A DNA stretch of 60,413 nucleotides, the filler included, from Stramenopiles sp. TOSAG23-6 (taxonomy: Eukaryota): assembly GCA_900128565.1 (NCBI GenBank). It is 13 parts of 13 records of this genome, joined end to end, with 100 filler letters (N's around TTAATTAATTAA, not from the genome) between each part and the next. Parts side by side here need not be neighbours in the genome. Positions count along the whole stretch, not along the records: positions 9,347 to 13,906 come from LT637125.1; positions 14,007 to 18,566 come from LT637126.1; 11 more parts are not named here. One strand, given 5' to 3'. The notes below the pieces were generated by a model that had not been told where the DNA came from, searched no databases, and worked only from the letters and a program-made list of their open reading frames with translations. Below are positions 1 to 49,140 of the stretch, piece by piece (within the stretch, counting starts at the first letter, position 1; the number at the start of each line of letters is the position of its first letter). The translations under genes were made by a program, and so were the position numbers.

Positions 1-99
1 ATGTNTTTTGNAAAAATATTTNAAAAAAAAAATTTAATTTTTGTTAGGTACAAAATGTCGTACGAAAAAAAATTCATACAAAAAAAAAATAAAACATAC
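1..99 (-). other. Family intron GT...AT (downstream exon outside window)
   Basis: AT|GTATGTTTT donor, GTACCTAAC core, ends CAAAANACAT at position 1. Confidence 0.7.
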
Positions 100-915
100 A
101 TGCACCAAATGATTCTTCGTATCTTTGAGTATGTTTATAATTAGGGTTGGGGTTTCGATTATTTTTAGACGTTTTAGATATTTTAGTATTATTTTTAGTA
201 TATCGAAATGTTGAACGAGAGTGAGTCCGATTATGAGTTCGTCGCGACCGACTTGAAGAATGCTCTGAAGATTTACTGTCTATTTTAGATTTTGTATTCT
301 TTGGATTAAAAATAAATAAAGGTACTGGGTGGGAAGGACGTTAATATTGTAGAAAAATATGTTATATTTTTGAAAAACATCGTTAGATATAAAATTTGTT
401 TTTATGAAAATGTACGATGAAAAAAAAAATGAAATAAGTGAATACAAATTCAAAAATATTTTTGAAATATTTTTTTCATAGTAAAATTTGTACCTAACAA
501 AAAAAAACAAAAAAAACAAAAAAATGAAATGTAAGTGAATACCGTACAAGTCAAAACAGATACAATCACATCCAACACCAGATCGTTTCATGCGCGCATG
601 TGTTAAATCACTCAAGTCTGTGTCAACACGAAATGTTCCATTTGAAGCTGTGAGTAGTTGAATGGTCATACCACTACTACCTAAATTTCGATCAACATAG
701 GAAACATCAAAAATATTGAGTGTGAGATTTACAGCTTCTAAAATATTACCACATGTATTGTGAAAAAAAACAAGAATTTTACAAAAAAAAAAAAATCGTT
801 AGGTACGAAATGTACTATGAAAAAAGAAAACTATAAAGTAATACATTCATGATGAAAACGTGCATTCACCCGTTGACAGAGAAACACCATTTGATTTAAG
901 CCTGTGGTGAAACGC
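100..915 (-). CDS. DEPDC5: DEPDC5/Iml1 (GATOR1 subunit), internal exons 864-915, 548-752, 100-341
   Basis: Spliced translation GNILEAVNLTLNIFDVSYVDRNL...SGVGCDCICFDLRPSHPVPLF matches the Iml1/DEPDC5 vWA-like motifs; frame is open after intron removal. Confidence 0.8.
342..547 (-). other. Non-canonical intron GT...TA with internal duplication and an inverted family core
   Basis: GAC TT|GTACGG...CAATATTA|A CGT restores CFDLRPSHP; a 2-nt upstream shift would create a TAA stop. Confidence 0.65.
753..863 (-). other. Non-canonical intron GC...AT
   Basis: GAA T|GCACGTTTTCATCATG...CGTACCTAAC...CACAATACAT|GT GGT restores GECGNILEA. Confidence 0.8.
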
Positions 916-1010: not shown

Positions 1011-2042
1011 ATGGCCTGTATGAACAAATTGAGACACCCAGCAATTAGGTTTACACTGTAAATATGATTCACTTTGAGCTATTTCGTTGCAGTGATGAGG
1101 AAATTGTAAATCAACACCCCCACCATGTATTGTAAAAAATATGCAAAAATTTGATTTTTTTGTTAGGTACAAATTTCGTATGAAAAACAAATAAATTTGA
1201 AATTCATGATGAAAACGTATATGTAAATTAAATGTTTTCCCCAACACTTGATGACTCATAGCACTGCATTCTATATGCCAACCAGGTCTACCACGACCCC
1301 ATTTGGAATCCCAAGTCACACAACTATCCCAATTTGTTTCTTTTTTTTCGGGTATGACTTTCCAAAGGGCAAAATCACGAAAATCTTTTTTTTCTGAAAG
1401 TTCATTTTGATCTGAATGAGAATTTATATTTGGTTGAGGTTGAGTGATAGTTGGGTCATTGGATAATCTACCATAAGCGTTACCAATAGAGGCTGTATCA
1501 AAATAAACACCACTATCGAGAATATATGCGTTTCCATTATCAATAATTGTCTGAATATATTCCTGAATATCTCCAATGTGTTCACTAACACGTGTCATAT
1601 TTGGTGGCAATTCAACACCAAGAGATCGCATGTCATTCAAAAATTCTAATTCATACAGCCGAGATAACTCTCTAGCAGACATACTACGTTCTTTTGCACG
1701 TGCAACAATCTTGTCGTCGACATCAGTAATTCCCATTACAGACACTACAGGCTGTCGGAAATAATCACGAAGAATACGTTGCATTATATCCAGGCACACA
1801 TACGTTCGCGCATGTCCAAGATGTGCGCTATCATACACAGTAGGACCACAATTGTACCATCGCAATATCCCATCATCATCACATTGTAAAGGCTCTAACA
1901 TACCAGTCACAGAATTTTGAATATTAACGGGTAACGTTCTCTGCATTGAAGGTGTAGCTGCTGAAGCAAAAGACCTATGAAAGGTTCGCTTTGTAACTAT
2001 TGAAGGGACAGCTTTGTACACCATGCGCATATGCGAACCCAT
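1011..2042 (-). CDS. Cysteinyl-tRNA synthetase, N-terminal part, probably organellar
   Basis: WYNCGPTVYDSAHLGHAR (HIGH), DFALWK, GRPGWHIECSAM, spliced LHGGGVDLQFPHHCNE; KMSKS region absent; N-terminus resembles a transit peptide. Confidence 0.93.
1125..1220 (-). other. Non-canonical intron AT...AT
   Basis: TTA CAT|ATACGTTTTCATCATG...GTACCTAAC...TACAATACAT|GGT GGG restores the conserved HGGG motif; 96 nt, so the ORF track reads through it. Confidence 0.85.
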
Positions 2043-2281: not shown

Positions 2282-3425
2282 ATGGAAAAGACAATGATAG
2301 ACTGGACGAATACAAAGATGGAATACAGGCAATTGGGCAAAACGGGACTTAAAGTCTCCGCTCTTAGTCTAGGTTCGTGGACGACATATGGAGGGACTGA
2401 AGACTACAAAACGTGTTATGATTGCTGTACGAAAGCTCTTCAACTCGGTTGCAATTTTTTCGATTGTGCAGAGATATATGCCAACGGTGAAGCTGAACGA
2501 GTTATGGGTATACGTTTTTTATTCTACAAAACTATGACAATATTTTATGATTGAATTACTTATTTATTAGTATAATACTTTACATATTTGTTTCTAAATT
2601 GTATAGAACCATACAACGTTGGATAAAAGAGGGTCTCTGTCTTCGAAGTGACCTCGTTATTTCTACAAAAATATATTGGGGTGGTCCAATGGCAGGAATA
2701 AAAGGTAACCCGAATGCTACAGGATGCAGCCGAAAGAGAATTATTGAAGGTACAAAAGCCTCTCTTTCTCGCTTAAATTTGGATTATGTGGATCTTATAT
2801 TTTGCCATCGTGAGGACTTCCAAACACCTATTGAGGAGACCGTACGGGCCATGTCATTTATCATTGATAAAGGGTATGCAATGTATTGGGGGACATCAGA
2901 AGTACCTTATTTCTATATGATTTCGATATTGTTGAAAAAATTTAAATATACACTATATATTTATCGCTTTATCATTACTATATTAATACACTCTACACTG
3001 GTCACCTGCAGCAATTTCGAGCGCAATTGAAATAGCGAGAAAGTTAAATTTGCACGAGCCTGTTATGGAACAGCCACAATATAGTCTACTTCATCGCCAT
3101 CATTTTGAAGTGTCTCTTGATCCCATTTTTGCTGATCATCGCGTACGATTTCATCAGTTATTTCAAATTTTTATTTTTTGTAATTTCAAATTGATTTTTT
3201 TTTTTCGTAAAAACAATAACAATTTATTTTTAAATATTTTTTCATAATAAAGTATGGTTCAACCATATGGAGTCCTTTAGCATGTGGCTTACTCACTGGA
3301 AAATATTCGGGTGGTAGTTTTCCTGCTGGTTCTCGTTTAGCACATGCAAAAAATGCATGGTTGAAAAATCAACTTGAAAATGGTGAAGATGGTACCTTAC
3401 CCCTAACCCTAACCAAATATCCAAC

Positions 3426-3458: not shown

Positions 3459-3985
3459 GTTTGAAAATTTATATCTTGGACAAATTTATACCTAACAAAA
3501 ATATCAAATGTAAAACTATTTTTTCAAAATAAATGGGGAGGAAATGGTTTAAATGGGCTTGAAGTGAAAGATCCTCAAGAAGCTCTTGATATGTCGGATA
3601 GACTGGCAACAATTTCAAAAAAACTTAAATGCACACAAGTAAGTTTTCATGATTTTCAATTTTCAATTTCTTTTTTTTCTTTTTTTTGTATGGAAATTTT
3701 GTACCTAACAATTTTTTTTTTCGTAAAAAAAAAAAAAAATACTTCTTCATAATACACGCTCAATTAGCTTTAGCATGGTGTTTAGTAAATCGTGATGTTA
3801 GTAGTGTTATTACTGGTGCAAGTAAAGTGTCTCAAGTAATTGAAAATTTTGAAGCTCTCGATATTGTAAAAAAATTGAATCAAGATATATTACACGAAAT
3901 CGATGTTTTATTGGGAAACAAACCGATCAGACCTAAATGCTGGGGTCGAGGTCGAAAACGCATCGGATATGGTCAAAGGGCGTAA
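2282..3985 (+). CDS. Aldo-keto reductase, Kv-beta (KCNAB)-like, 6 exons
   Basis: YRQLGKTGLKVSALSLGSW, FFDCAEIY, VISTKIYWG, YWGTSEW, EQPQYSLL, AQLALAW; introns at 2510-2604, 2902-2998, 3143-3252, 3392-3534 (or 3540), 3639-3757. Confidence 0.92.
2510..2604 (+). other. Non-canonical intron AT...AT (degenerate family member)
   Basis: GGT|ATACGTTTT...AATTGTAT|AGA restores RVMGRTIQ; the adjacent GT and AG do not give an in-frame product. Confidence 0.65.
2902..2998 (+). other. Non-canonical intron GT...AC
   Basis: GAA|GTACCTT...CTCTACAC|TGG restores conserved WGTSEWS. Confidence 0.8.
3143..3252 (+). other. Family-like intron with canonical GT...AG
   Basis: CGC|GTACGATTTCATCA...CATAATAAAG|TAT restores DHRYGSTIWSP. 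Confidence 0.85.
3639..3757 (+). other. Non-canonical intron GT...AC
   Basis: CAA|GTAAGT...GTACCTAAC...CATAATACAC|GCT restores CTQAQLALAW. Confidence 0.85.
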
Positions 3986-4459: not shown

Positions 4460-4578
4460 ATATATCGTGAAAAAATAACTACAAAAAAATTCAAATTTTT
4501 TGTTAGGTACACAAAATTTTCAATGAAATTTTCAATGAAATTTTTTTTTTTTTTTTTTTTTTATTTCAAAAAAAAAAA

Positions 4579-4678
4579 NNNNNNNNNNNNNNNNNNNNNN
4601 NNNNNNNNNNNNNNNNNNNNNNTTAATTAATTAANNNNNNNNNNNNNNNNNNNNNNNNNNNNNNNNNNNNNNNNNNNN
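4579..4678. other. Artificial contig spacer (also at 9247, 13907, 18567, 23225, 27877, 32528, 37177, 41826, 46474, 51121, 55768)
   Basis: Identical 100-nt N-TTAATTAATTAA-N linker about every 4.65 kb. Confidence 0.98.
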
Positions 4679-7761: not shown

Positions 7762-8913
7762 ATGTTCAAGAACACATTTCAATCAGGTTTTTTATCAATT
7801 CTCTACTCTATTGGTAGCAAACCACTTCAGATATGGGACAGAAAAGTCAGAAATGGACATATCAAGAGACTTACGGGTAAGTATTTTCTACAAATGTTCG
7901 GAACTGACCATTAGTGTTTATTTTTTTTTGTCCTTTACACTTTTTAGGATTTATAGTTTGATTCCAATGTTTTTTCTTGAGTAAACTGTATCGTAATGAA
8001 AAGCAAAATATGCCATCTTCAATACTTGCCATGTATGTGTGTGCTTGCACGATATATATTGCTGGTGTTGTTCTTTCACGCTAACTTTCCCCATTGGCTC
8101 TTCAAATCTTTCTTTGTATACGAAAACGGAAGACGCCACACAATCTNNNNNNNNNCATACAACATATTGACATATATACACATAACACAGACCCTGATAT
8201 TCAATCAAGTGTATTGGAAATTCTTGGAACTAATGTCAGTACAACGTTTATAAGTTGCCCAGCTGACTCAAAAAAGACCCTAGGTATCAAGTTGCCTTTT
8301 CTTGTAATGATTATCAAAAACATGAAAAAATACTTTACATTCGAAGTACAAGTTTTGGACGATAAAAATGTGCGTCGCAGATTTCGTGCTTCAAACTACC
8401 AATCGACCACTCGTGTTAAACCTTTCATTTGCACCATGCCAATGAGACTTGACGAAGGATGGAATCAAATTCAGTGTATGTTTTATTACAATTTAAAATT
8501 TTAATTTTTTTTTCGTACGAAATTTTGTACCTAACGAATTTTTAAAAATGTTTTAAAATATTTTCCTACAATACATTTAATCTCTCTGATTTTACACGCC
8601 GAGCGTACGGTACTAACTACATTGAAACTCTTCGTGTTCAAATACATGTACGTAACCACAACCCTAATTATCGCTCAAAGAGTCCATCTTGATTTTTTTT
8701 TTTTGTACCAAATTTCGTACCTAACGATTTTACATTTTTTTTTTCTTCACAACACAGGCGAATTGTCGTATCCGTCGAATTTACTTTTCCGATCGACTTT
8801 ATTCAGAGGATGAATTACCACCTGAATTTAAGTTGTTTCTGCCTATTGCCAAAGGTGCTGAGGCACAGCCAGCTGCAGCTACCCAGCAGGTTGCTGTTGA
8901 GAATCCTGCATAA
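7762..8913 (+). CDS. CFAP20: Cilia- and flagella-associated protein 20 (BUG22), 4 exons
   Basis: [26 protein letters not shown]...[18 protein letters not shown]...[18 protein letters not shown]...VQIHANCRIRR. Confidence 0.97.
7877..8190 (+). other. Canonical GT-AG intron without the family core
   Basis: G|GTAAGT...AACACAG|AC restores KRLTDPDIQS. Confidence 0.9.
8476..8576 (+). other. Non-canonical intron GT...AT
   Basis: CAG T|GTATGT...CAATACAT|TT AAT restores conserved QIQFNL. Confidence 0.9.
8648..8757 (+). other. Family intron with canonical GT...AG, fixing the splice register
   Basis: CAT|GTACGT...CGTACCTAAC...CACAACACAG|GCG restores QIHANCR; a 2-nt shift would change the conserved His to Gln. 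Confidence 0.92.
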
Positions 8914-9527
8914 GAGTTCTAATTTTGTATAATAATTTCTTACTTGAGGTATTTTATGGTGTATTTATGGATTATCTTTTTTGTGTTTTAACAAGGATAG
9001 TTTTTTTAAATTTTATAAATTATACTATACTTTTTTTATTTGTTTTTTGTTAATAGTGTACATCTACTATATTTATTTTGTATTTGTATATTTTATTTTA
9101 CTTAGAAGTGAGACCCTTAGAGTACATCATTCTCTCTCTTTATTGTATTTTTAAGTGTTTGGAGATGTGCTGAATAAACTTCATCAACGTATTGACAATC
9201 TTTTATTCTTTTTCTTTCCTCTGTACTACTTTTTAAACGATAATTTNNNNNNNNNNNNNNNNNNNNNNNNNNNNNNNNNNNNNNNNNNNNTTAATTAATT
9301 AANNNNNNNNNNNNNNNNNNNNNNNNNNNNNNNNNNNNNNNNNNNNGTTTTCATTATGAATTTCAAATTTATTTTTTTTTCATACGAAATTTTGTACCTA
9401 AACAAAAAAGATTTTTTTTTAGTTTTTATTCAATACGTTTTCATCATGAATTTCAAGTTTACTTTTTTTTTTTTTATAAAAATTTTGTACCTAAACAATT
9501 TTTCTTGAAATATTTTTCTGTAGCACA

Positions 9528-10238
9528 GAATATTTGCAAAGCTTTCATCATGGGTAACGCCACTGAAAATATTCTTGATGATGCTGTCCGCCACTGCCAG
9601 TATGCGGTGAATGTAATTGTCCCTGTCAGTGAACGCCTATGTTGTGCTGGTGATAGTGATAGTGCGTTTCCATAATGAATTGTTTACCTACATCTTTTTT
9701 TCGTATGAAACTTTGTATCTAAGGATTTAAAAAAATATATATTTTTCACAATGTATGTGATGGTGAAAATATTAATTTAGAAAATTCTAATTGTGATAAA
9801 ATTGTTCATAGTTCTAGGCAAAATATTGTTGATAAAAGTATATCTAACCAAAATCATCAAGAAAGACATTTACATATGAGAAAGACCTTGTGTGATCTAT
9901 ACCAAACATCAAATAGTCATCATGTTTGTTTTTTTTTTTTTTTCAAATTCGATTTTTTTTTTTATAAAAATTTTGTACCTAACAAATTCTAGTTTTTTTT
10001 TTTGAAATATTTTTCCAAAATACATTCTATGAAAAAGTATAAAACATTGGATTCACTGAATAATGACCCTACCATGAATACACGTAATATTGTACACAAT
10101 ATATCACGAAATACATCAACCAGTAGTGAACTATCACAAATTTCACAGCAACAACCGTCAAAATTTGTGACTCCTGGGCCAGGTTCACAAGAAACTCCAG
10201 CATCTGGATTGTTTCTTTATACTCCAAGTGTACTATAA
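9528..10238 (+). CDS. Hypothetical protein C-terminus, possibly with a USP-like motif; GT...AT introns at 9662-9756 and 9924-10025
   Basis: Continuous frame after removing both introns; FIMGNATENIL...VNVIVP weakly resembles a USP-domain end. Confidence 0.55.
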
Positions 10239-10381
10239 CGATAACCCTAACCCTAGCAAAAATGTCATTTTGAGATTTAGATTGATTTTTTTTCTGATTG
10301 AATAAAATCGACCTCGGTCAAAAAAAAAAAATTGTGTATTACCTTTTTTTTATACGTTCAATTGAATATAAATTGATCAAA

Positions 10382-11323
10382 ATGCCTTCAAATGCTGTAG
10401 TTTTTCTCCAGGATCAAGGGATTCCCCGAAGCGATGTTGAAAAGAAACTTAGCGTTCATGGATTGAAAGCTCTCTGGCAAGCAACAAAAGATGATATGCC
10501 TGTATCAGAGTCTGATGCCAGAGAAGTCATTGCAGTAGTCACTGTCAACAAGCCAGTCACAGAAGCCGTTCTGAGAAAGTATCCAAATGCTAAAGTTCTT
10601 GCTGTTGCATTCACCGGATATGGTGTACATGATTTAAACGCGTGTAAATCTGCAGGAGTTGTAGTTTGTAATGTTCCTGACTACAGCTCTGACTCAGTCG
10701 CTGAGCTTGCAATTGGTTTAACCCTCGCCGTCTACAGAGAAATTCCATCTGGTAATGCTCTTGTTCGTAGTGGTAAGTGGGGGCTAAGTGCTGGTGGCAC
10801 TGAATTACGTGGAAAGACAGTAGGCATTGCAGGGACTGGAAATATTGGTTGCGCTGTTGCGCGTCTCTTTAAGGCGTTTGGGTGTAAAATTATTGGTTGG
10901 TCCCGCTCTAAAAACTCAAAATTTTTGGAGTTAGGCGGCACTTATGTGACCCGCGAAGACTTATTTGTACAATCTGATATCGTCAGTATTCATATACCAA
11001 ACAACACAGAAACAAAAAAGATGATAAATCGAAATGATTTTGAGCGGATGAAATCAACGGCTGTTTTTATAAACACAGCTCGAGGTCAAGTGATTGACGA
11101 AGAAGTTCTTGTGGAGTTCTTAGCAGCAGGAAAATTTCGTGCTGGTCTTGACGTGTATGATACGGAGTCTGCACCTGCGTGGGCTTCCAAGGTGAATGAA
11201 AATACTATTCTTATGCCTCATGTTGCATATAAGACAAAAGAAGCTTTAGCGAAGAGAATGGATATTACTGTTAATAATATTACTTGTGCTCTTAGTGGTA
11301 CACCAGTAAATTTGTGTACTTGA
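10382..11323 (+). CDS. D-isomer-specific 2-hydroxyacid dehydrogenase
   Basis: VCNVPDYS..SVAE, GKTVGIAGTGNIG, FINTARG, LDVY, MPHVAY. Confidence 0.93.
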   Translation: MPSNAVVFLQDQGIPRSDVEKKLSVHGLKALWQATKDDMPVSESDAREVIAVVTVNKPVTEAVLRKYPNAKVLAVAFTGYGVHDLNACKSAGVVVCNVPDYSSDSVAELAIGLTLAVYREIPSGNALVRSGKWGLSAGGTELRGKTVGIAGTGNIGCAVARLFKAFGCKIIGWSRSKNSKFLELGGTYVTREDLFVQSDIVSIHIPNNTETKKMINRNDFERMKSTAVFINTARGQVIDEEVLVEFLAAGKFRAGLDVYDTESAPAWASKVNENTILMPHVAYKTKEALAKRMDITVNNITCALSGTPVNLCT

Positions 11324-11523
11324 ATAAAAAAATACCTAATCCTTAAAAAAAAATGTTTTATCGCTCATATCAAGATATACGAAAATATGTGAATATATAT
11401 ATCAAGAGATAACGATGATATATTGTAGTTTATTTAGGTATTTTGTGCTTTAAATCAAATTGAAACTCAAAACTGACACGAGAAATAAATTCATTTCTAA
11501 ACCTAACCCTAACCCAAATATCA

Positions 11524-12628
11524 TCAATTTTTGTTTTTCTCTGCAGCAATCATTTCTCTAGCTACAATAAAACAACCAACAAGTCCACCCAACTGAATAT
11601 CTTCAGATGTTGCATGTGCCAAATGATTTTCAAGATCTGCTAGTTTTGAAGCAATATACATTTTCACTGGAGGAGGAAATACTAAATCATTAGATCGTTC
11701 AAAGACGCATTTGATGACATCTTGCATTGCAAGACCTTTCTCCCGGCGAATACACGAAATATTGCGATATGCTTTTGAAAAAGGCTCATTTAATAACTGA
11801 GTCATGATTGCATCTACATCTGCTGGGTGTGGTGTACCGGTACAGATGTATTGTGAAAAGTATTTTACATTCAATTTTTTTGTTAGGTACAAACTTTTGT
11901 ACGAAAAAAATATTTTACACTCAATTTTGGAAAACGTACATATACACATTTTCTTGATTTACTTCAGGATAAGCCATGTGACAGGACTGTAAAATATTGA
12001 GCATTTTTCGCATATCACCCTCACAAAGATTTAAAATAGACTCCATTCCATCATCAGTTATATTAACATTTTCAGCGTTAGCAATTTCTTTCAAACGTCC
12101 ACTCATTTGAAATTTCTCAAGAGGAGCAAATCGAAATCTTGTACAACGCGATTGAATAGCTGGAATAATCTTATTTGCATAGTTACAAATTAAACAGAAG
12201 CGTGTATTTTTTACGTACTTTTCAATCACACGTCGAAGAGCAAACTGTGCTGTACGGGTCAGAGCATCTGCCTCATCCAAAATTACCAACTTTACACCTG
12301 AACTAAAAAGTTTACGAGTACCAGCGAAATTCTTAATTTGATTTCGCACTACATTTATACCACGATCATCCGATGCGTTAAGCTCTAAAACCATTGAAGA
12401 AAGATTATTACCATATAGGCGCCGTGCACACGCAAGAATTGTGGACGTTTTACCGGTACCTGGAGGACCGTAAAAGAGCAAATGAGGTAAGGAGTTTGCA
12501 TCTACCAGGCGATTAATTGTCGAAATAATTTCAGTGTGGGCAATCAAATCATCAAGCGTATTAGGGCGATATTTTTCTATCCATGGAAGAGACTCAGTGG
12601 CTGTCATCTTCTTCATTGAAGGGGCCAT
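11524..12628 (-). CDS. RFC5: Replication factor C small subunit (human RFC5/yeast Rfc3 type), 2 exons
   Basis: LPWIEKYRP, YGPPGTGKTS, LELNASDDRG, DEAD, IQSRC. Confidence 0.93.
11846..11939 (-). other. Non-canonical intron GT...AT
   Basis: TAT AT|GTACGT...CACAATACAT|C TGT restores NVYICTGTPHP. Confidence 0.9.
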
Positions 12629-12843
12629 TTCTTTCTATTTTAGCTCTCTTGTGGAGAGAGGTTTTGGGGGTCGAAGTCGTCGAAATCAATCATCTCAAGA
12701 ATATTCGTGACATCAATTTGATTTTTTGACTCAAATCGAAATCCTAGTCAGCGGTCAGTAGATTTAGTCATATTGGGTGTTGTTTGTGACTTAGTGCAAC
12801 TACTACAGGATCAATCTAAGCAAGCCCTTAGAAATAAGTCACT

Positions 12844-13811
12844 ATGCATTCTTGGGAAACTGCAGAATTTCGTTCACTAAAAGCACATGTGACAGCTACC
12901 CAAAAGCTTCATTTGCGCGATCTTTTAAAAGATGATGCTCGTTGTAGCTCTATGCGTACAGAGTTTGATGGCATTACGCTTGACTATGCGAGACAACTCG
13001 TAACTTCAGAAACAATGAATAAACTGGTTAACCTTGCAAATGCTGTGAGTCTTCCTAGCAAGATAAAGTCGATGTTTGAAGGGGCCCATCTTAATACTAC
13101 TGAAGATAGGGCTGTATTACACACTGCACTTCGTGCTCCAGTTAATTCTACATGTATGCTCGATGGAGAAGACATAATTCCAAAAGTTCACGCTGTGCTT
13201 CAACAAATATGTACATTTTCCGAAAAGGTTCGTAATAGTGAATGGTTAGGTGCAACTGGAAAGGCTTTAACTGATGTGCTTTGTATTGGCATTGGTGGAA
13301 GTTATCTTGGTCCTGAGTTTGTTCATGTATGTTTTATTTTTTTTCAATTTCGAATTTATTTATTTTTCGTACGAAATTTTGTACCTAACAAATTTTACAT
13401 TTTTTTTTTCCACAATACATGAAGCATTGCGGACTGATTCTGTGGCTGCTCAAAAAGCAAAAGGTCGACGGCTTCGTTTCCTTGCAAATGTTGACCCCGT
13501 TGATGTTGAGCGCTCTCTTGAAGGCCTTGATCGTGAAAAAACTTTGGTTATAATCGTTTCTAAAACTTTCACGACTGCAGAAACGATGTATGTTTTATTT
13601 TTTTTCAAATTCGTTTTTTTTTTTATAAAAATTTTGTACCTAACAAATTGAAGTTTTTTTTTTTTCAAATATTTTTCCAAAATACATGCTTAACGCAAGA
13701 ACAGTTCGGCATTGGTTGTTAGATGGAGCGAATGAAAAACTATCAACAGACAATGTGATTAAACAACAGTTTATTGCTGTTAGTGCTGCGGTAGACTCTG
13801 CAAAAGAATTT
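12844..13811 (+). CDS. GPI: Glucose-6-phosphate isomerase, 5' part (contig ends in intron 3)
   Basis: [51 protein letters not shown]. Confidence 0.96.
13327..13420 (+). other. Non-canonical intron GT...AT
   Basis: CAT|GTATGT...TTTCGTACGAAATTTTGTACCTAAC...CACAATACAT|GAA; using the nearest downstream AG (+4) causes a frameshift. Confidence 0.92.
13588..13687 (+). other. Non-canonical intron GT...AT
   Basis: ACG AT|GTATGT...CAAAATACAT|G CTT restores TTAETMLNA. Confidence 0.92.
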
Positions 13812-14069
13812 GTATGTTTTATTTTTTTTTTAAACAAAAAAAATCGATTTTTTTTTCGTACGAAATTTTGTACCTAACGATTTTTTTTTTGAAATATTTT
13901 TCCAAANNNNNNNNNNNNNNNNNNNNNNNNNNNNNNNNNNNNNNNNNNNNTTAATTAATTAANNNNNNNNNNNNNNNNNNNNNNNNNNNNNNNNNNNNNN
14001 NNNNNNCGAAATTTTGTACCTAACATTTTTTTTTAGATTTTTTTTGAAATATTTTTTCACACTAAATGT

Positions 14070-14750
14070 ACTTCAACTTGGAATCGAAATTTTCTACTAC
14101 ATTTTTTATATAATGATATTTTAAAGCGATTATCAATACCTATTGAATTTGTTGCTCGGTTATACGTTACAATTGTAAAAATCGATCAAATCAAATCAAA
14201 AATTGGAGCAATTTCATTTCAAATGGGTTATAATCGTTCAAATTTTTTTACAGATGAGGATATATCTAATGGGAATGACAGTTTTGTACTTGGATTGGAC
14301 ATGGACCGTGAAGAATTGTCTGAAAAACAAAACTCAAATCTTTGGATTGATTCAGCAACAACACGAAATATTGGAAAAATTGAATTAAAATCTCTCCGAC
14401 CGAATGAATCTTTAGATATTTGTGTACCTATTTCAAATAATAATTTAAAAAACAATACGAATGAATTTTGTGAAAATCCTCAAAATCCTCAAAATCAAAT
14501 TTTGTTACGTTTACAATTAAAATTTGAAGCCATTACAATTGACATTGCAAAACATGAACAAAAAAAATTATCAAAATTATCTACAATTGATAGAAAAATC
14601 AATTCATCTGATAAATCAACTAATGTAGGAACAGTTGTTGGTAATGCTGGATCATTCGCTGCAAAAGCTTTTCGAAGCAAATTATATTTTGCAGGTGTAA
14701 GTGCAAAAGACGGAGCGAAAGCGATTCGAGATCAATTCGATATTTTCTAA
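14070..14750 (+). CDS. Hypothetical protein last exon, possibly C2-like; start approximate
   Basis: Long open frame following the 3' end of a family intron. Confidence 0.45.
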   Translation, partial: TSTWNRNFLLHFLYNDILKRLSIPIEFVARLYVTIVKIDQIKSKIGAISFQMGYNRSNFFTDEDISNGNDSFVLGLDMDREELSEKQNSNLWIDSATTRNIGKIELKSLRPNESLDICVPISNNNLKNNTNEFCENPQNPQNQILLRLQLKFEAITIDIAKHEQKKLSKLSTIDRKINSSDKSTNVGTVVGNAGSFAAKAFRSKLYFAGVSAKDGAKAIRDQFDIF

Positions 14751-15105
14751 AATTTTTTTTAAAAAATTAAATAAAATTGTAAAAAACTGGTATGAACAGG
14801 TTTGTTCCATTTTATAATATTTCGGTCAAAAGTGGTGCAAAAGTGGTCAAAAGTGTTTTTTTTTTGAGTTGTTGGCCTTCCTTCAAGAGGAGAGAGAGAA
14901 AAAGATCAATGATCATAAAATAAAGAAGAGCTGATTTACTGTGTTATAATCATGATTATACGTTTTATAGAATGTCTCATAGTCATACAGTAAGAGGTAT
15001 GATAGTGACTATATATCGAGGGTAAATTACACATCTTGGTATTGATTTTGTTGTTCTTTCTACAAAAGCGGTACGTCAAAAAGAACTAGTCACTACATTA
15101 GAGAA

Positions 15106-16872
15106 ATGTGGCGTGGTGATCGTTTTATTCCAAATCGAAAGACAAACATTGAAACTACTTCGTTCCTCTCAATGTTGAAAGAGAATCACGAACCATATGA
15201 CACGTTCATATTCAAGAAACAAGTTGCGTCTATTTTGTTTAACAGTTGTAATACAAGTCGCCGTGTTTTTTCTTTTACACCAAGCATAGCTAATTCACCA
15301 CGAAATACACAAAATACTTTAGAAAATATTAGGTCCTTGTACTGTAGAGGTAAACAGACGACAAAGACTCCAAAAGGTTCGCGTAATATTTCACTCGTAA
15401 AAGTTCTCGATGCGCCAGACTTATTAGACGATTATTACCTGAATCTTCTTGATTGGTCAGTCGATAATATTCTAGCAGTTGCTTTACAATCATTTCTTTT
15501 TTTGTGTATGTTTTATCTGAATTTCTAATTTAATTTTTTTTTTTGGTTTTCGTACGAAATTTCGTACCTAACGATTTTTTTTAGATTTTTTTTGAAATAT
15601 TTCTTCACAATTCGTGGAATTCTCACACAAACGAAACGGAAGAACTTTTAGAATTAGACGGTAATGACTATATTTCATCTGTGAAATTTTCAAGTGCAGA
15701 TGGAAATATTCTTGCTATAGGCACAAGTAATTATCAAATACAATTATGGGATATCAAAAAAAAAATAAGAATTCGAATTCTCACGGGGCATCTTGGACGC
15801 ATGTAAATTTTATTTTTTTTTTAAACAAAAAAATCGAGTTTTTTTTTTTTTCCAAAAAAATATTTTTTTCATATGAAATTTTGTACCTAAAAAAAAAAAA
15901 AAAAAATATTTTCAAAAAATACATATGTGGTTTAGCATGGNNNNNNNNNNNNNNNNNNNNNNNNNNNNNNNNNNNNNNNNNNNNNNNNNNNNNNNNNNNN
16001 NNNNNNNNNNNNNNNNNNNNNNNNNNNNNNNNNNNNNNNNNNNNNNNNNNNNNNNNNNNNNNNNNNNNNNNTTTTTTTTTTTTTTTTTTCCAAAAAAATA
16101 TTTTTTTCATACGAAATTTTGTACCTAAAAAAAAAAAAAAAAATATTTTCAAAAAATACATATGTGGTTTAGCATGGTCCTATGATGGAATCTCACTAGC
16201 ATCTGGAGGAAATGATAATTTGTGTTGTATCTGGGATTCACGATATTCAATGAAATGTTCTACCAATCAAAATGAACATAAAGTGCGTTGTATTCTTCGC
16301 GCGCACAAAGCTGCTGTCAAGGCCATCGCATGGTGTCCACACCAAAGTCATCTACTCGCATCAGGTATTTTTTTTTCATAGTAAATTTCGTACCTAACGA
16401 TTTTTTTATTTTTTTTCAATTTTTTATCTATATTTTTTTTTTCATAGTAAATTTCGTACCTAACGATTTTTTTGTGATTTCCTATTTTTCACAATACTTG
16501 TGGAGGCTGTAATGATAAAACAATCAAATTTTGGAATACAAGTATTTTGTCTAATGAAGCAACATGTATCAAAAGTGTTTTTACAGGTAGTCAAGTGTGT
16601 GCTCTTCTTTGGAATCAACACAGAAAAGAAATTTTATCTTCACATGTAAATTCTATTTTTTTTTAATTTTTTTTTTAAATTTTTTTTTTCATACGAAATT
16701 TCGTACCTAACGATTTTTTTTTTTTTTTACAATTTAAATTCGTATTTTTTTACAATCCATGGATATTCTGAAAATCAAATCTGTTTATGGCGGTATCCAA
16801 ATATGAAGAAAATTATAGAGTTAACTGGACATACAAAACGTGTTTTACATTTATGTACTTCTCCTGATGGAG
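15106..16872 (+). CDS. CDC20: Cdc20/Fizzy family APC/C activator (gapped; 3' end lost)
   Basis: C-box [66 protein letters not shown]. Confidence 0.9.
15506..15615 (+). other. Non-canonical intron GT...GT
   Basis: TTG T|GTATGT...CACAATTCGT|GG AAT restores LFLWNS. Confidence 0.85.
15803..15924 (+). other. Family intron GT...AT, possibly collapsed from two introns
   Basis: CGC AT|GTAAAT...AAATACAT|A TGT; its 3' half recurs after the N gap. Confidence 0.6.
16365..16499 (+). other. Non-canonical intron GT...TT with duplicated core
   Basis: TCA G|GTATTT...CACAATACTT|GT GGA GGC restores conserved LASGGG. Confidence 0.85.
16646..16760 (+). other. Non-canonical intron GT...AT
   Basis: CAT|GTAAAT...TACAATCCAT|GGA restores SSHGYS. 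Confidence 0.88.
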
Positions 16873-17362
16873 CATTGACGTGTTCGGGGGAGGCGATGAT
16901 TCAGGTAGATGGGACAAAAAAGACTTTTCGCCTTCGTTGTGGGACACTATCATCAAAGAGGTAAAGCAACGAAAGTACACTGGAATTTGCTTCGATTTGG
17001 AAAGAGGAACAGCCGAACCTCGTGATTTCGCTACACTTTTCAAGAAAGTGAAAGATGAAAACTTGACAGTAATGGTTACAGTTAGTTGGTTTGGTCAGGC
17101 AACTTGGGGTTTTACAAATCTTCCAGACCTGACCAAAAGCTTCATGAAAGACCCCAATGTTGACATTTTCTCTCCTCAACTTTATTCTGCGAATTGCGGT
17201 GAAATTTGGAATGGAGAGAATCTTCCATCTGAATCTGTTATTACAGCACTTAAAAACATGGGAAAAAGACTTATTCCTAGCGTCAACGCTGTCTCTCCCG
17301 CTGTCAAAGACTACTTTCCATCAAGTGGTGGAACAATACAATTTTGCAACACATATCGATAA
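16868..17362 (+). CDS. GH18/chitinase-like fragment lacking its N-terminus
   Basis: VFGGG, YTGICFDLE (resembles DxxDxDxE), FSPQLY. Confidence 0.55.
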   Translation, partial: WSIDVFGGGDDSGRWDKKDFSPSLWDTIIKEVKQRKYTGICFDLERGTAEPRDFATLFKKVKDENLTVMVTVSWFGQATWGFTNLPDLTKSFMKDPNVDIFSPQLYSANCGEIWNGENLPSESVITALKNMGKRLIPSVNAVSPAVKDYFPSSGGTIQFCNTYR

Positions 17363-18818: not shown

Positions 18819-20257
18819 ATTCATTTTTTTCGTATCAAAATCTATAGTTTTTCCATGTCCAAATTGTATAGTACCTCCTTTATATAAAAATGGATATTGA
18901 TCAATAGATCGAATACCAAATTTTTGTTTTTCTTGAGGAGTAGCTCCTTGAACTAAATAATAAAATATATGAAAACATCTATCACCTTGACATAAATGAG
19001 ATAATCTTGATTTTTCTAATAAATAATGTTGTACTGTAGCTCCCATGTTTTTTGTGAAAAAAAAAATTTTGAAAATTTGTTAGGTACAAAATTTCATACG
19101 AAAAAACCAAAAAAAAAAAAATTGTAAAAAAAAATTGAAATTGAAAAAAAAAAAAAATTTGAAAATTTGTTAGGTACAAAATTTTTATAAAAAACCAAAA
19201 AAAAAAAAAATTGTAAAAAAAAATTGAAATTGAAAAAAAAAAAAAGGTACTTCAGTTGACCCGTTGATGAATTGAAATAAATTTTCATAAATTTTCCAAA
19301 ACGACTTGAATTATCATTTAGATGTGATTTAGCATTCCCAAATGCTTCAAGAATTGTACTAACATTTTGTATTAATGCTGATATATCGAAATTCTTTGTT
19401 TCAAAATTTTTTGTTTCAAAATTTTTTGTTTCAATTTTTTTTGTATTTTTCGTGTTTGAGAAAAATGTTAAATATTTAATAAATAAACCACAAGTAACTG
19501 TCTTACCTGCTCCTGATTCACCGGATACTATACAACTTTGATTTTGTATATTTTGTATATTATTTTCAAATTGATTGTTATATGCACGTGCGGCAATCAC
19601 ACTAACACTTGGTCGGTGTTTTTTTTGTTTTTTTTGAATGTTTTGAATTTGCATTAATGAAGAATTGGTATGAAATTTCGTACCAAATGAATTTGGAATG
19701 TTCATATATGGATTGATGGATAATAAAACATCACCAACAAATGTATAAATATACTTTTGTTGAATATATCTACGACGAAGAATTTTTAGTAGAATAGCTT
19801 CACTAAAGGAAACAATAGTACAAATATCATCGTTTTTTTGAGTTTCCTCATTTTCTTCTTCATTTTTGTCCCCAATTGAAATTTGTCTTTGTTTGTGTGC
19901 TTCATCCCAAGGATACACATAATTACAATCCAATTCTACGATACTCCCATCACGTATCTGAATAGAATGTTTTTCAGTACCCCATTCTTTTATTTCACCC
20001 ACGTCATACAACTTTGTAACCATTGTTTGTGTCACATTATGAAGGTGACTTCCGGGGCATTGTCCACGTTTATTATAGTCACTTCTAAACTCATCCAGTG
20101 TTTGATTTAAAGATTGTAAATGTGAACGACGAAATGTAGCATCTGTTTCCATTTTGTGGAGAAATTGTGTACGTAATACATCATTTTGAACAACATCAAT
20201 ACAACGTTCAACGTTTCCCTTGAAGTTATCACCTACACGATAGTAACATTTAGCCAT
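18819..20257 (-). CDS. Myosin heavy chain, 5' part
   Basis: IYTFVGDVLLSINPY, VSGESGAGKT, LEAFGNAK, NDNSSRFGKF, YLLEKSR, FHIFY. Confidence 0.93.
19045..19250 (-). other. Non-canonical intron GT...AT made of a tandem-duplicated unit
   Basis: CTG AA|GTACCT...CACAAAAAACAT|G GGA restores GQLKGATVQHYLLEKSR; two GTACCTAAC cores. Confidence 0.8.
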
Positions 20258-32183: not shown

Positions 32184-33465
32184 ATGTCCGTTTTTAGGTA
32201 TGGAAATTTGTACTAAAATGTCGTGTTTTTAGGTATAGAAATTTTTACTAAAAACGTCGCATTTCTAGGTTAAAAATGTCATGTTTTAGAATGTAGATTG
32301 TAGATTTGACCAAAGGAGTTATAAGAAAGAAAACACTTTTTGTTTTCAATATTTTTAGAATGAATGTCTCAAATTCTTTTTCATAAAAGTTTTTTTCAAT
32401 ATTTTTAGAATGAATGTCTCAAATTCTTTTTCATAGAGTTTGTGTGTTGAATCACAAAAAAACATTTTGTAGGCATGTATTTTGGAAAAATATTTCAAAA
32501 AAAAATTCGTTAGGTACAAAATTTCGTNNNNNNNNNNNNNNNNNNNNNNNNNNNNNNNNNNNNNNNNNNNNTTAATTAATTAANNNNNNNNNNNNNNNNN
32601 NNNNNNNNNNNNNNNNNNNNNNNNNNNTTGTACCTAACAAATTTTTTAAGATTTTTTTTGAAATATTTTTCCAAAATACATGGTGCTAAACATTTCAATA
32701 CACCTAAACACAAAAAGTCACCATTTCAAAAAATCTTTCAAATCTTTCAAATCTCTAATGTTTTCCATTTAATCTGCTTTGGATTTGGAATTGTGTTGAT
32801 ATTAGGGTTAGGGTTTTATCTACGATGTAGAAAATATCGAATTCAATTCAAGCGTAAACAGTCTCTGTAGTCTTCAGTATTGTTGTACGCATTGTGATAT
32901 TCGTGATATTCCGTACCATTTTTTACATACGATGCTTCATTTAAAAAAATAATTTTATTTTTCTTCAAAATACAATTACTTTTGAAGTGTATATATCTTC
33001 TTTTTTTTTTAAATTTATTATGATTCACTTTGAATTGTGTCATCAGTTTTCCAAATATTTCTTTTCCATTTGCTTTATGGTCTTGAAGAAACCTGCAGGC
33101 GCCATCCAATGTGTGATGTGTGTAGCTAAGGCCGATTTCATCAGTGCAGCATAAGTCATATGACTTATGACGTTTTTTTTATGATTTTATAGACTTATGT
33201 TTCTGTGCAGTTCATCAGCAATTGTCATAACCTAGGTGGACTCGAACCCTCGACCTTATGAATTATTAAAATTCAACTTTTGACCACTCATTTTTGATAT
33301 TTTATTTTAAACATCATTTTTGTTCTGTGGTGTGTACGCTTTGACCAAGTAGTAGTAGTCGTCGTCGTTGTCTTCCTTTTCAATAATACCAAGTTGATTC
33401 CCTCTTATACAACTGCATCATATTATTGTTTGAATAGAGAAACACAGAATTATCATAGAGTCCTG

Positions 33466-34377
33466 ATGGCTGAAAATAATCATGGTGAAATTGATGCTGA
33501 GCCCTTGCCCTTGTCCTTGCCTAAAACAAAAAAAAGAAAACGAAGATCTAACTTTACGACTGATGAACTTCCACTTATTCTAAGGGCTGGGTATGCAGCA
33601 AGTCACAATAACAAGGGTTCAGATAATAAGACGTCGACACTTGAAGAATTGATTGAAGCCAATTTCAAGAAACTCAGACCTTCTTCAGTAAGAACTGGCG
33701 ATGCACTTTGGACAAAGTTCAAAAATCTCAAAAGAGATTGCGGTAAGTACTATACTATTTACTGTACTTTAAAGAGAGCTAAGAAGTCAGGTTGGGAAGA
33801 GGAAACATACTATCACGAATCAATTAAAGCTATGAAGAAGAATTTCAGTACTACACCTGCCTTTTCTCAAGAAGTTTATGCTATCTACAAAGAGATGCAT
33901 GAAATGCACGAAACAGCAACTGTGAAAAAAGGCACCAGCGGAAGAAACAAAATTCGAGCAATTGACAAGGCAAAGAAAGGTGTACAGCAAATTATTGATC
34001 TTACAAAAAAAGAAACAAAACACCAGCAAAAGGCCATGTTAGATGCCCAGAGAGATCGTTCAGCAGCAGTTCAGCAGATGTCCCAAGTTATGTTCATGAG
34101 GCAAATACGATCTTCACCACCGGGTAGTGAAAACAGTAAATTTCTGGAATTCATTGAGGGAAATCAAAGAAAACTTATGATGATGCAGATGGAAGAGAGC
34201 CTGCTTAGACAGCAGGATAAGATTGATAAACTAAAGAAGAAAATAAACAATGGCAAAGAAAGTAAGGACAAAGAAAACAATGAAGAAAACAATGAAGAAA
34301 ACAGCAATGAAGAAAGCAATGGCGACAAAGAAAAAGACGAAGAAAACAACGAAGAAGACGAACTTCTTGTCTCATAG
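33466..34377 (+). CDS. Harbinger Myb/SANT-like accessory protein
   Basis: NFTTDE...LRAG...RTGDALWTKFKNLKRDC...KKSGW; lies inside the TIRs. Confidence 0.85.
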   Translation: MAENNHGEIDAEPLPLSLPKTKKRKRRSNFTTDELPLILRAGYAASHNNKGSDNKTSTLEELIEANFKKLRPSSVRTGDALWTKFKNLKRDCGKYYTIYCTLKRAKKSGWEEETYYHESIKAMKKNFSTTPAFSQEVYAIYKEMHEMHETATVKKGTSGRNKIRAIDKAKKGVQQIIDLTKKETKHQQKAMLDAQRDRSAAVQQMSQVMFMRQIRSSPPGSENSKFLEFIEGNQRKLMMMQMEESLLRQQDKIDKLKKKINNGKESKDKENNEENNEENSNEESNGDKEKDEENNEEDELLVS

Positions 34378-34564
34378 AAAAATATCGTTAGGTACAAAAT
34401 TTCGTATGAAAATGTTACATGTATACGTTACTTTTTTATCTTTCATATTCTACATTAATTTTATATCTTTCCTATTGCACATCTAGATAAAAAGAATAGC
34501 AATAAAAAGAATAAAAATGATAAAAGAAAATTATTTTGAAATTCAAATCATCTTTATAATAAAA

Positions 34565-36037: not shown

Positions 36038-36403
36038 TTCGTGTTTTATTGAAGTTATGACGCGAGATAAAGTTAATAAAAAAAAGACAATTTATCATAA
36101 AATGCAAAAAAAAACATAAAGTTATGACAAAAATTTATGATTATCATAACTTTTTTTACTGATGAATCCGGTAATCATAACTTTTTGTCATAAGTTACCC
36201 GGGAACCATACTTATGCTGTACCGATGAAACCGGCCTAATGGTATAAGTTATATAATAATATTATATGACGATGACGTCATTGGTTTTGATTGACTTCGT
36301 TTTTTTCAAATCTTTGACTGGCCGATCTGATCTGGCCGATGAGAAAGTTTCTCCATGTGTGGCAATAATAAACATAGTTTTGTAGCAACAAACGTTTCTA
36401 AAA

Positions 36404-39026: not shown

Positions 39027-39213
39027 AAAAATATCGTTAGGTACAAAATTTCGTATGAAAATGTTACATGTATACGTTACTTTTTTATCTTTCATATTCT
39101 ACATTAATTTTATATCTTTCCTATTGCACATCTAGATAAAAAGAATAGCAATAAAAAGAATAAAAATGATAAAAGAAAATTATTTTGAAATTCAAATCAT
39201 CTTTATAATAAAA

Positions 39214-41766: not shown

Positions 41767-41925
41767 GTATGTTTTATTTTTTTTCAATTTCGAATTTATT
41801 TTTCGTACGAAATTTTGTACCTAACNNNNNNNNNNNNNNNNNNNNNNNNNNNNNNNNNNNNNNNNNNNNTTAATTAATTAANNNNNNNNNNNNNNNNNNN
41901 NNNNNNNNNNNNNNNNNNNNNNNNN

Positions 41926-46631: not shown

Positions 46632-49140
46632 TTATGGACTTTATTGTCCTGGGGACCCACATGGATATACAAATGCTGTCACAGGATATCCACAATTATG
46701 TAAAGGGGGTTACTATTGCCCATCTCCAGCGAAGCAAATCATTTGTCCAAAAGGATATGCTTGTCGTCCTGGATCATCTGAACCTTCTCTATGTGTTTTT
46801 TTTCATGAGTGTCCCAAGGGATCTTCTCGACCAAATGGTAGTTTTATTGGTGTAGTTTCTGTCGTTATTTTGTTTTTATTTGTCCATTCTTTTAAATATA
46901 TATATCTTTGCATTCGAAATGGAAATAGAATTGCTAGAGAAACTACACCAAGTTCGAAATATTGGCGACGTGCAATGTCTTATGTACCATCTTGGCGTAA
47001 AATCAAAAATATTAATGGTGAAGATAGACCTTTATTAAATGTATTGAATCATGATATGCAAAACGCCTTTGATGATGAAAATTCAGAAAATGTACCAATA
47101 ATACCATTAATGACTGCTGAACCTTTGTTACGTTCTGAAAATAGTGAAAAAGTTTCGATTATTTTTCATCGTATTACAGTAAAGTTGGAGCCTAATTGTA
47201 CATCTTTAGTAAAACATGACAAAAGAATAGAAAAAATAATTATCAAAGATGTAACTGGAACTCTTAGAAGTTCACGACTCACTGCAATTATGGGTCAATC
47301 GGGATGTGGTAAAACGACTTTATTGAATGCCCTTTGTAACCGAATAATTCGTCCAGCGAAATTGTATGGAGATGTCTATGTAAATGGTACTCTAATGCCT
47401 AGTGGGATATCAAAAGATATAACAGGTTATGTTCCACAAGATGATACAATGCATACTGAACTAACAATACGTCAGTGTCTTTGGTTTTACTTAGAATTGA
47501 AAGGAAATCCGCAAAAAACATTTCGTGAAAAAAAAATGCATTTGAATAATATACTTACAGTGTTAGGTCTATATAATATTCGACATTCTATTATTGGAGA
47601 TACAGAGACACGTGGTATTAGTGGTGGGCAAAGGAAGAGAGTAAATGTAGGTATTGAACTTCTAGCTGACCCAACAGTTCTCATGCTGGATGAACCTACA
47701 TCGGGGTTGGATAGTACTACATCTGCAGATCTCATCTCAACTCTTTCAAATTTGGCAAAGACAGGGCTTACTATAGGGATGGTCATTCATCAACCACGAC
47801 CAGAAATTTTAGACATGACTGATGTGCGTTTTCAAAATTGAATGTATAATTTTGTTTTTTGTAATTTGTATCTAACAAAACAAATGAATGTAAAGTATTT
47901 TTCTAATATGCATGATTTGATATTACTCCAACGTGGACGATTGGTGTATTGTGGTCTTTGTGACAATGCCAATGCTTACTTTGAATCTTTAGGTTATGTT
48001 TTACCTTCTAGAACAAGTCCTGCAGATTTTTATCTTGATTTACTAGTAAGTACAGCAACATATGAAAATGAGGAAAGATGTCTCTATAATCAATGGAATC
48101 AGAAAACATTTAGAGAACAGTTGAATTTGGATACAAAAGAGGATACTATAAATCATTCAGATGATGTTGTATCACTCATTTCTTCAATGTTTTCCTCTAC
48201 AGATTCACCTCCGAAATCAAGAAAAAAACCTTCATTTACAGCACAATTTATTACCATAATTAAGAGGGGTCTTGTTCAACATGGTTGGCCCACGAGTTCT
48301 TTCCTTGGAGATGCATGTACATTTTTTTTTCATTTTTGAATGTATTAATATTTTTTTTATAGAGAATTTCGCATTCAAAACAAATGAAATTTGAAATATT
48401 TTTTCACAAATTATTATTGCTTGTATTTTCTGGTGCATTACTTGGTGCTGTATTTTCCTCAGGTAGTACCAATGAGCTTACAATGCGGTTTCTTTTATCT
48501 TCACTTGCAATTGGTTTAACAGGCACTCAATCTGCTATTACAATTTTCGGTGGAAAAGAAAAAGTTATTTTTTTACGCGAATCTGCATCTGGTATTAAAG
48601 TAACAGCGTATTTCTGGGGCAAGTTAGTATCGTATCTTGTTCGTATCCTTACGGCACCTGCTTTTTTTCTGTTGCTTTATTATCCTCTGTCAGCTCCAAG
48701 ATTCTCTTTTTTTGTATATTATCAAATATTGTTATGGACAAATTTAACAGCGATGTCAATAGGAGTTTTAATATCCCTCTTATTTTCACGAAATTCGGCG
48801 TTTTTTTGCGGGAGTCATTGTTTCCTTAATATCTATATTATTTTCTGGTATGCAACCACCCGTCAAGGAATTGGAAACCACCATTTTTGGTCAGATTGGA
48901 ATGTCACTTTCATACGCTCGTTGGACAACAGAAGCTCAATTTTTTATGGAGCTCAGTGCATATCCTCCATCAGCATATAAATTAAATGTTGTGAGTGGCA
49001 TTATAAATTTCTTAGGCTATGGTCAAAACCATACACTTAATTTAGAAACTGTTTATGAACTGTGTATTGTTCAATTACTATATATTACTGTGGCTTGTTT
49101 GTTAATATCATATATAATTTTACTACGAAATGCAAGATAA
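46632..49140 (+). CDS. ABCG half transporter with Cys-rich extracellular N-region; GT...AT introns at 47824-47913 and 48317-48414; homopolymer frameshift at about 48805
   Basis: GQSGCGKTT, ISGGQRKRV, LDEPTSGLDS, IHQPR; spliced DMTDDLILL; FLRESASG. Confidence 0.9.

Follow-up and report, generated by a model that had tools for sequence, protein, structure and literature searches.

Introners are near-identical short introns that occur in unrelated genes of marine protists (Micromonas, Aureococcus, Polarella, and Amoebophrya). The available passages of PMC11282704 describe them as having short inverted termini and junctions in short direct repeats, and as being excised together with one flank copy. 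As far as the excerpts of PMC12130899 go, published introner surveys start from annotated introns and accept GT, GC, GA, or AT as the first two bases but only AG or AC as the last two. Here we analyzed 60,413 bases of DNA from Stramenopiles sp. TOSAG23-6 (the window). This marine stramenopile probably carries one highly amplified spliceosomal intron family whose members are short (92-135 nt) and mostly end without AG. Copies interrupt the genes of glucose-6-phosphate isomerase (GPI), Cdc20, and other proteins. The family resembles introners in its near-identical short copies in unrelated genes and its marine protist host, and apparently also in short inverted termini, junctions in short direct repeats, and the loss of one flank copy on excision. 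It differs in that the 5' splice site and the branch motif are canonical and the 3' end is mostly AT, whereas the ends of Amoebophrya introners are variable, with no single fixed motif.

Introns of the tunicate Fritillaria borealis are also comparable. In the excerpts at hand, most of them escape the AG rule and derive from miniature inverted-repeat transposable elements (MITEs); their removal is ascribed to a U2-type spliceosome, with divergent U2AF paralogues binding the non-canonical 3' ends (PMC13326754, PMC11282704). Their ends are diverse (AG-AC or AG-AT) and the 5' GT is lost, whereas the stramenopile family keeps GT, the hexamer, and the branch motif, with only the last base of YAG changed. 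Introns of euglenids and hemistasiid diplonemids likewise have non-GT-AG borders, short direct repeats at the junctions, and pairable ends (PMC12621601), but they lack U1-complementary 5' sites, conserved branch motifs, T-tracts, and conserved terminal dinucleotides, with variable ends in hemistasiid diplonemids, and the host studied here belongs to the stramenopiles. Nonconventional euglenid introns are defined, in the passages available, by the absence of GT-AG ends, U1 complementarity, and a pyrimidine tract and by pairing of +4..+6 with -8..-6 (PMC11282704); the copies described here carry a 5' GT hexamer and T-tracts. Skipping of AGs near the branch point is found in canonical introns as well, but in the excerpted cases the acceptor finally used is still AG (PMC1431707, PMC3239191). 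U12-type (AT-AC) introns, including the Physarum expansion, tolerate non-AG 3' ends, and an AT..AC reading can be made for most copies; their 5' consensus and branch-to-3' distance do not fit the family. In a search of openly accessible literature, including passages of marine stramenopile (MAST) papers, introns lacking a terminal AG were not described for MAST or any other stramenopile.

The window contained 21 complete copies, and one copy on a metagenome contig (L003) brought the set used for position counts to 22. All share one stereotyped architecture, (C)AT/GTA[TC]GTTTT.., a T-run, CGTACGAAATTTYGTACCTAAC, further T-runs, and ATATTTTTYCA[CA]AATACAT/G, where slashes mark the junctions. On the exon side, A at -2 and T at -1 were each found in 19 copies and C at -3 in 12. 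The intron start GTA[TC]GTTTT, with G at +1 in 20/22 and T at +2 in 21/22 copies, corresponds to the GT hexamer of U2-type introns; the exceptions were GC at 863(-) and AT at 1220(-). Next come a T-run and CGTACGAAATTT[TC]GTACCTAAC. The branch motif was CTAAC in 17/22 copies and CTAAA or CTAAT in the others, with T-runs on either side, as in the YTRAY motif and pyrimidine tract of U2-type introns. From the YTRAY/TACTAAC consensus and its family-wide invariance, GTACCTAAC was taken as the putative branch site. The introns end in further T-runs, often GAAATATTTTT, and then [TC]CA[CA]AATACAT/, followed by G in 16/22 copies. The 5', branch, and 3' blocks were thus near-invariant in the position counts, and the palindrome upstream of and overlapping GTACCTAAC decays without compensating changes. 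At the 3' end, 19 of the 21 window copies lacked a terminal AG (16 AT; GT, TT, and AC one each). With L003 included, 20 copies ended in AT (17), GT, TT, or AC and only 2 in the AG of U2-type introns.

The motif GTACCTAA occurred 44 times in the window against 1.2 expected. Two of the matches (30641 and 30761) had no family flanks, and those at 16121, 37279, 41817, and 39044 are repeats of the same assembly stretch. Since this excess is so large and both introns with internal AGs discussed below belong to the family, the pattern is not due to chance. Copies were found in the GPI, Cdc20, RFC5, cysteinyl-tRNA synthetase (CysRS), CFAP20, DnaJ, AKR, and ABCG genes, many copies in unrelated genes being the hallmark of introners, and diverged members with changed branch blocks were present in the ABCG and AKR genes. 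All gene-interrupting copies lie in the sense orientation of their gene, at ~1 per 1.5 kb in essential single-copy genes. The GT..AT introner-like family makes up nearly all introns seen in the window, and ~85-90% of the introns seen in these 60 kb end in T. Scans for the branch block yielded four loci on metagenome contigs, of which only L003 was a family member, and 42 matches on genome contigs, none with family flanks.

The positions of the junctions were determined by comparison with homologous proteins (Table 1). For GPI, tblastn was carried out with five full-length relatives out of 120 homologues listed, and none of the five showed a gap at either junction; therefore, the true acceptor of GPI intron 2 is ..ACAT/ at 13687. 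For Cdc20, residue 136 of the homologue aligns with the codon whose last base is 15504, and residue 137 with the codon that 15616-15617 complete (two full-length homologues examined), which places the true acceptor at ..TCGT/ (15615), downstream of GTACCTAAC at 15564-15572. The sequence-only reading had proposed that internal AGs are bypassed in both introns. Indeed, splicing at the AG at 13652-13653 would retain 34 extra nt (mod 3 = 1) and reach a stop after 13 codons, and splicing at the AG at 15583-15584 would retain 31 extra nt (mod 3 = 1), with TGA as the fourth codon. Neither AG is used in the product that homology demands, and the homologues place the junctions at the non-AG ends that had been predicted, except that the end of GPI intron 1 had to be corrected to 13420. 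In total, eight non-AG junctions were fixed to the residue by homology: two in GPI, three in Cdc20, and one each in CFAP20, CysRS, and RFC5. Among the 19 non-AG copies, 12 had clear frames on both sides, and excision defined by the terminal motif rejoined 11 of these in frame (P = 4.7e-5); the single miss is a 23-codon CFAP20 exon, which homology resolves. The copy on L003, which ends in AT, joins open runs of 151 and 46 codons. A near-identical protein spanning a junction was sought with exon 1 of GPI, Cdc20, and CFAP20, and none was found apart from the public gene model P0121. This model is 100% identical over Cdc20 exon 1 (15106 onward) but forces GT-AG ends, drops conserved Cdc20 residues after 15505, and translates part of the intron at 16646-16760, indicating that the annotation missed the family introns.

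Table 1. Coordinates of exons, introns, and splicing signals in the window (a slash marks a junction or two adjacent residues)
Feature	Position	Strand	Evidence
GPI exon 1	12844..13326	+	tblastn homologues P0001, P0004, P0006, P0008, P0015 end at 13323-13326; Pfam of relatives, PF00342
GPI intron 1, 94 nt, GT..AT	13327..13420	+	Homologue residues ungapped over junction; no AG from branch A to acceptor
GPI exon 2	13421..13587	+	tblastn homologues
GPI intron 2, 100 nt, GT..AT, bypassed AG inside	13588..13687	+	Homologues; split Met codon at(13586-13587) + g(13688)
GTACCTAAC, putative GPI intron 2 branch site, with 13643 as branch A	13636..13644	+	Family-wide invariant motif
Bypassed AG of GPI intron 2, 10 nt past putative branch A	13652..13653	+	Use gives frameshift and stop
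GPI exon 3	13688..13811	+	Homologues; next family intron from 13812, cut off by contig end 13906
Cdc20 exon 1	15106..15505	+	P0124, P0128 align to 15504
Cdc20 intron, 110 nt, GT..GT, bypassed TAG inside	15506..15615	+	Residues 136/137 (P0124) and 150/151 (P0128) adjacent across intron
Bypassed AG (T8-AG), 13 nt past putative branch A 15571	15583..15584	+	Use gives TGA at codon 4
Cdc20 intron, 135 nt, GT..TT, internal duplication giving two branch motifs	16365..16499	+	Homologues; registers allowed 0..+2 only
Cdc20 intron, 115 nt, GT..AT	16646..16760	+	P0124 residues 342/343
CFAP20 intron, 101 nt, GT..AT	8476..8576	+	P0392 residues 115/116 adjacent; registers allowed -1..0 only
CFAP20 family intron ending in AG (..CACAACACAG/), same motif register	8648..8757	+	P0392 residues 139/140 adjacent
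RFC5 intron, 94 nt, GT..AT	11846..11939	-	Chain 6vvo_C residues 236 and 238 either side of split codon
CysRS intron, 96 nt, A for G at +1 (AT..AT in family register)	1125..1220	-	32-residue insert between chain 9yru_A residues 271 and 272
Diverged member in ABCG transporter gene (GTGCGT.., GTATCTAAC, ..ATGCAT/)	47821..47913	+	Sequence and frames; Pfam ABC_tran/ABC2 on flanking open reading frames; junction without homologue check

The cut can slide by 2-5 bases in most copies, as the flank and the intron end are both mostly AT. The sole register fitting all copies is GT..NT, as bounded by the introns at 8476-8576 (-1..0) and 16365-16499 (0..+2). In this register, CA[CA]AAT lies at -10..-5 and is followed by N-Y-A-T/ in 20-21 of 22 copies, whereas the putative branch A and the acceptor are anywhere between 32 and 53 nt apart. 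CAT and TAT triplets that come earlier, such as those in GAAATAT, are skipped, and therefore the three terminal bases alone are insufficient. The acceptor had been proposed to be specified either by the terminal motif or by distance; the fixed register of the motif together with the variable distance favors an extended terminal motif as the likely signal, and the distance option was not borne out. A second member ending in AG in the same motif register was identified by frame at 3149-3253.

The same proposal held that first-AG scanning does not apply, and this was not demonstrated by the two introns. In 27 copies (19 complete ones and eight 3' halves), seven AGs follow the branch A, where composition predicts 15.5 (P = 0.003), and six of the seven are located 10-13 nt from it. 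Four of these six proximal AGs represent a single T-run-AG-A-T-run block shared within one subfamily. The remaining AG is 24 nt from the branch A, in the copy at 4510(-), which has no upstream exon. In the available part of PMC1431707, AGs nearer than ~12-15 nt to the branch point are described as bypassable in canonical introns, and the excerpts of PMC3239191 add that yeasts differ in tolerance and can mask proximal AGs. The proximal AGs fall in this known bypass range, so the two skipped AGs are no proof that AG recognition is missing. The anomaly is the normal acceptor, YAT, and not the skipping of two AGs.

We propose the following model. Each copy has GTATGT or GTACGT as its 5' splice site, resembling that of yeast, followed by a T-run, a decaying palindrome overlapping GTACCTAAC, and more T-runs, and would be removed by the U2-type spliceosome. 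Exon ligation would occur directly after the 11-15 nt terminal motif TTTTTYCA[CA]AATACAT/, so that the 3' splice site would be Y-A-T (rarely YGT, YTT, or YAG) instead of Y-A-G. The extended motif would position the acceptor, possibly assisted by a short helix that joins the 5' junction (AT/GTAT) to the intron end (ATACAT/), and AGs 10-13 nt behind the branch A would be too near for use. In its origin, the family looks like a MITE-derived introner with short GTAT..ATAC termini and AT flanks within a CATG-like site, of which excision would take the element and one flank copy.

Independent DNA and RNA contigs were compared with the part of the window carrying GPI and RFC5 (9347-13906 only), using four independent seawater runs, with 8553 X3 DNA contigs aligned. 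Summed contig depth in the four runs ranged from 100 to 57,000 in intron bins versus ~2-8 on unique sequence; therefore, the family is very abundant in DNA and also present in RNA libraries. Two X6 poly(A)-RNA contigs stop at 11845 (record 9, RFC5) and 13323 (record 12, GPI). These ends match the predicted exon edges once 2 and 4 letters, respectively, that could belong to either piece are discounted (the CATG ambiguity at 13323). Their leftover letters, 37 and 38 in number, were absent from the listed pieces. An X3 DNA contig runs through both places, and X3 record 4 confirms the RFC5 intron, from which it differs by one substitution and by no indel.

If splicing were ordinary GT-AG splicing, the non-AG ends would be artifacts of homopolymer length or assembly, with the true acceptors at AGs inside or close to the introns. 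The assembly does contain N gaps, duplicated stretches, and long T-runs, one T fewer would bring each of the two AGs in frame, and some frame-preserving AG is present within +60 nt of the exon in 10/19 non-AG copies; the public gene model uses such AGs. However, 16/19 copies lack any AG from the branch A to the junction, and 9/19 offer no frame-preserving AG up to +60. In the remaining 10/19, alternative AGs delete conserved residues wherever a homologue exists: they add or remove residues where five GPI, two Cdc20, two full-length CFAP20, one CysRS, and one RFC5 relatives are ungapped. The T-corrected AGs would insert ~10 residues at places without a gap in the GPI and Cdc20 relatives, and X3 record 4 matches the RFC5 intron independently without an indel. 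We therefore regard GT-AG splicing as extremely unlikely. Equally implausible is that the copies are unspliced transposon insertions that break genes. The family is a high-copy repeat with short inverted termini in which contigs often break, but the interrupted genes include the essential single-copy GPI, RFC5, CysRS, Cdc20, and CFAP20, every copy is in sense orientation, and removal restores the frame together with residue-level colinearity.

A reading of most copies two bases to the left, as AT-AC introns (/ATGTATGT..AATAC/) spliced by a minor (U12-type) or AT-AC-tolerant spliceosome, would yield the same mRNA in 18/22 copies, which have AT both before GT and at the intron end. CCTAAC is similar to the U12 branch consensus, and A replaces G at +1 in the intron at 1125-1220. 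U12-type introns have the 5' consensus [AG]TATCCTT and a branch site 10-20 nt from the 3' end. The family instead starts with GTA[TC]GT rather than [AG]TATCC, with [TC]GT and not CCT at +4..+6, and its branch motif is 32-53 nt away from the 3' end. A shift to the -2 register cannot be made in 8476-8576, 16365-16499 (where only registers 0..+2 are allowed, so that the AT-AC reading is excluded for that intron), and 3639-3757, and yields GT..TC at 15506-15615; this reading is very improbable. Somewhat less remote, but still unlikely, is removal outside the major spliceosome, either guided by structure as in euglenid nonconventional introns or by excision at the DNA level. The CATGTAT and ATACATG ends can pair and close the minimum-energy fold in 5/8 copies folded, only one fold beating shuffles. 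Junctions lie in direct repeats of 2-5 nt, as the excerpts describe for noncanonical introns of euglenids and diplonemids (PMC11282704, PMC12621601). In copies with a non-AT exon end, 6/8 informative positions can pair (P = 0.036) and 4/8 repeat directly (P = 0.11); these counts establish neither an end-to-end helix nor target duplication. GTAT..ATAC termini with AT/AT flanks occur in 18/22 copies, and both flanks are the consensus anyway. Against such removal, 20/22 copies start with GT in a U1/U6-type hexamer, all copies have CTAA[CAT] and T-tracts, which the euglenid introns lack, and the fold z-scores are weak. The elements are found both in the bulk DNA of independent metagenomes and in RNA libraries, which speaks against routine excision from DNA.

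Several observations weigh against a non-AG spliceosomal family or limit its support. In the 19 complete copies, AG is ~3-fold depleted downstream of the branch site (3 versus 10.0 expected, P = 0.003) and not upstream (5 versus 6.7). This depletion and the two to three members that end in AG suggest that AG may still be a usable acceptor that is avoided, and the machinery may still prefer AG when offered. The RNA contig ends are a weak hint of splicing at the predicted edges, short of a direct view of splicing at non-AG sites, and none of the 15 rows listed (307 more exist) was a junction row for a GPI or RFC5 intron. The branch point was deduced by consensus rather than mapped. Whole-intron folds were not stable relative to shuffles in seven of eight copies (z from -1.44 to +0.56; -3.25 in one). 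The T12 run behind the AG at 13653 is covered by no unique independent contig, and the assembly is fragmented, with N gaps, duplicated stretches, and long T-runs. As the copies share descent, their counts are not independent and the P values overstate the evidence. For individual copies, the GT..AC end of 3639-3757 was assigned by frame alone, the counted copy at 9433-9528 lies upstream of the probable start codon, in a probable 5' untranslated region, with unverified ends, and in 9924-10025 splicing at the TAG at 9991-9992 would keep the frame and meet no stop, with no homologue to rule out its use. A PDB search with the AKR exon upstream of 3639-3757 gave no usable relative.

Taken jointly, the data also allow a broader interpretation, which is possible although we lean slightly against it. 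In the MAST-3-like host, the major spliceosome would have moved from YAG to YAU as its default 3' splice site, all introns would descend from one MITE-like introner inserting at AT in CATG-like sites, and the acceptor would be placed by the 11-nt terminal motif. Acceptor choice may further require a G(+1)-U(-1) contact or a 6-bp helix linking the 5' junction with the intron end, replacing the universal G(+1)-G(-1) contact.

Some copies carry further features. Internally duplicated or tandem elements, with two branch blocks per intron or head-to-tail pairs, were seen at 9347-9530, 16365-16499, and 19000-19260(-), the first pair in the probable 5' untranslated region. Telomere-like CCCTAA units lie just within the 5' part of three introns (8655-8680, 3393-3425, and 60-100(-)). 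The CysRS gene provides natural 5' variants, with A at +1 in 1125-1220(-) and GC for GT in 753-863(-), both ending in ..ACAT/. In Cdc20, a fourth intron (15803-15924) adjoins an N gap that conceals ~40 residues. The same intron tail and the same next 16 bases are found on both sides of this gap (15941-16071, within 15803-16180), and the residues absent relative to homologues amount to one WD40 blade; 15803-16180 probably reflects two similar introns that were collapsed in the assembly, with loss of the exon between them. The Cdc20 frame also seems shifted by one base after a G run at 16880-16895, before the last WD40 repeat, which may be a homopolymer assembly error.

The window consists of parts of ~4.65 kb in falling size order, joined by N44-TTAATTAATTAA-N44 linkers (4579-4678, 9247-9346, 13907-14006, and onward), with a G+C content of ~33%. 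Its open reading frames encode ordinary eukaryotic proteins: GPI, Cdc20, RFC5, CysRS, CFAP20, UGGT, Ku, VDAC, an ABCG transporter, myosin, and DnaJ. The catalytic part of UGGT is 90% identical to a EukProt model with 'MAST32' in its source label, and the next named relatives are from labyrinthulomycetes, oomycetes, and pelagophytes. These relatives place the host near MAST-3, and it appears to be a heterotrophic marine stramenopile close to a MAST-3 relative. Noncanonical introns have reportedly been found in marine diplonemid single cells, but a diplonemid origin of the host was rejected, since the best UGGT relatives are stramenopiles. Seawater metagenomes from 2024 contained near-identical DNA, parts of which were also found in poly(A) metatranscriptomes. 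At least 11 contig ends fall within copies of the intron family, indicating that the repeat breaks or limits the assembly. The stretches 32628-37176 and 37277-41825 seem to be one sequence, as motif matches, flanks, and open reading frame lengths recur at a 4649-base offset. A PIF/Harbinger-type transposon is located at 33129-36237, with 28-nt inverted repeats that are 89% complementary. It contains a DDE_Tnp_4/Plant_tran frame at 34568-36091(-), a second frame without a Pfam match at 33298-34374(+), and a fragment of the intron-family branch block at 34387-34412. No autonomous partner or recent mobility of the intron family was apparent in the window, where this transposase is the only one and its 28-nt repeats are unrelated to the intron ends. 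No small nuclear RNA was detected in the window (0 Rfam matches).

The family has consequences for annotation as well as for splicing. If GT-AG ends are enforced, gene models for the host and its relatives will be systematically wrong, distorting functional and comparative work on abundant uncultured marine grazers, and introner surveys based on annotation would miss a GT..AT family. As a natural case in which only the last intron base is off canon, it makes the roles of the contact between the first and last nucleotides, of U2AF, and of second-step factors testable. If the shift to YAU is true, invasion by an introner would have changed the splice code of an entire genome, yet the 5' site and the branch site would have stayed canonical.

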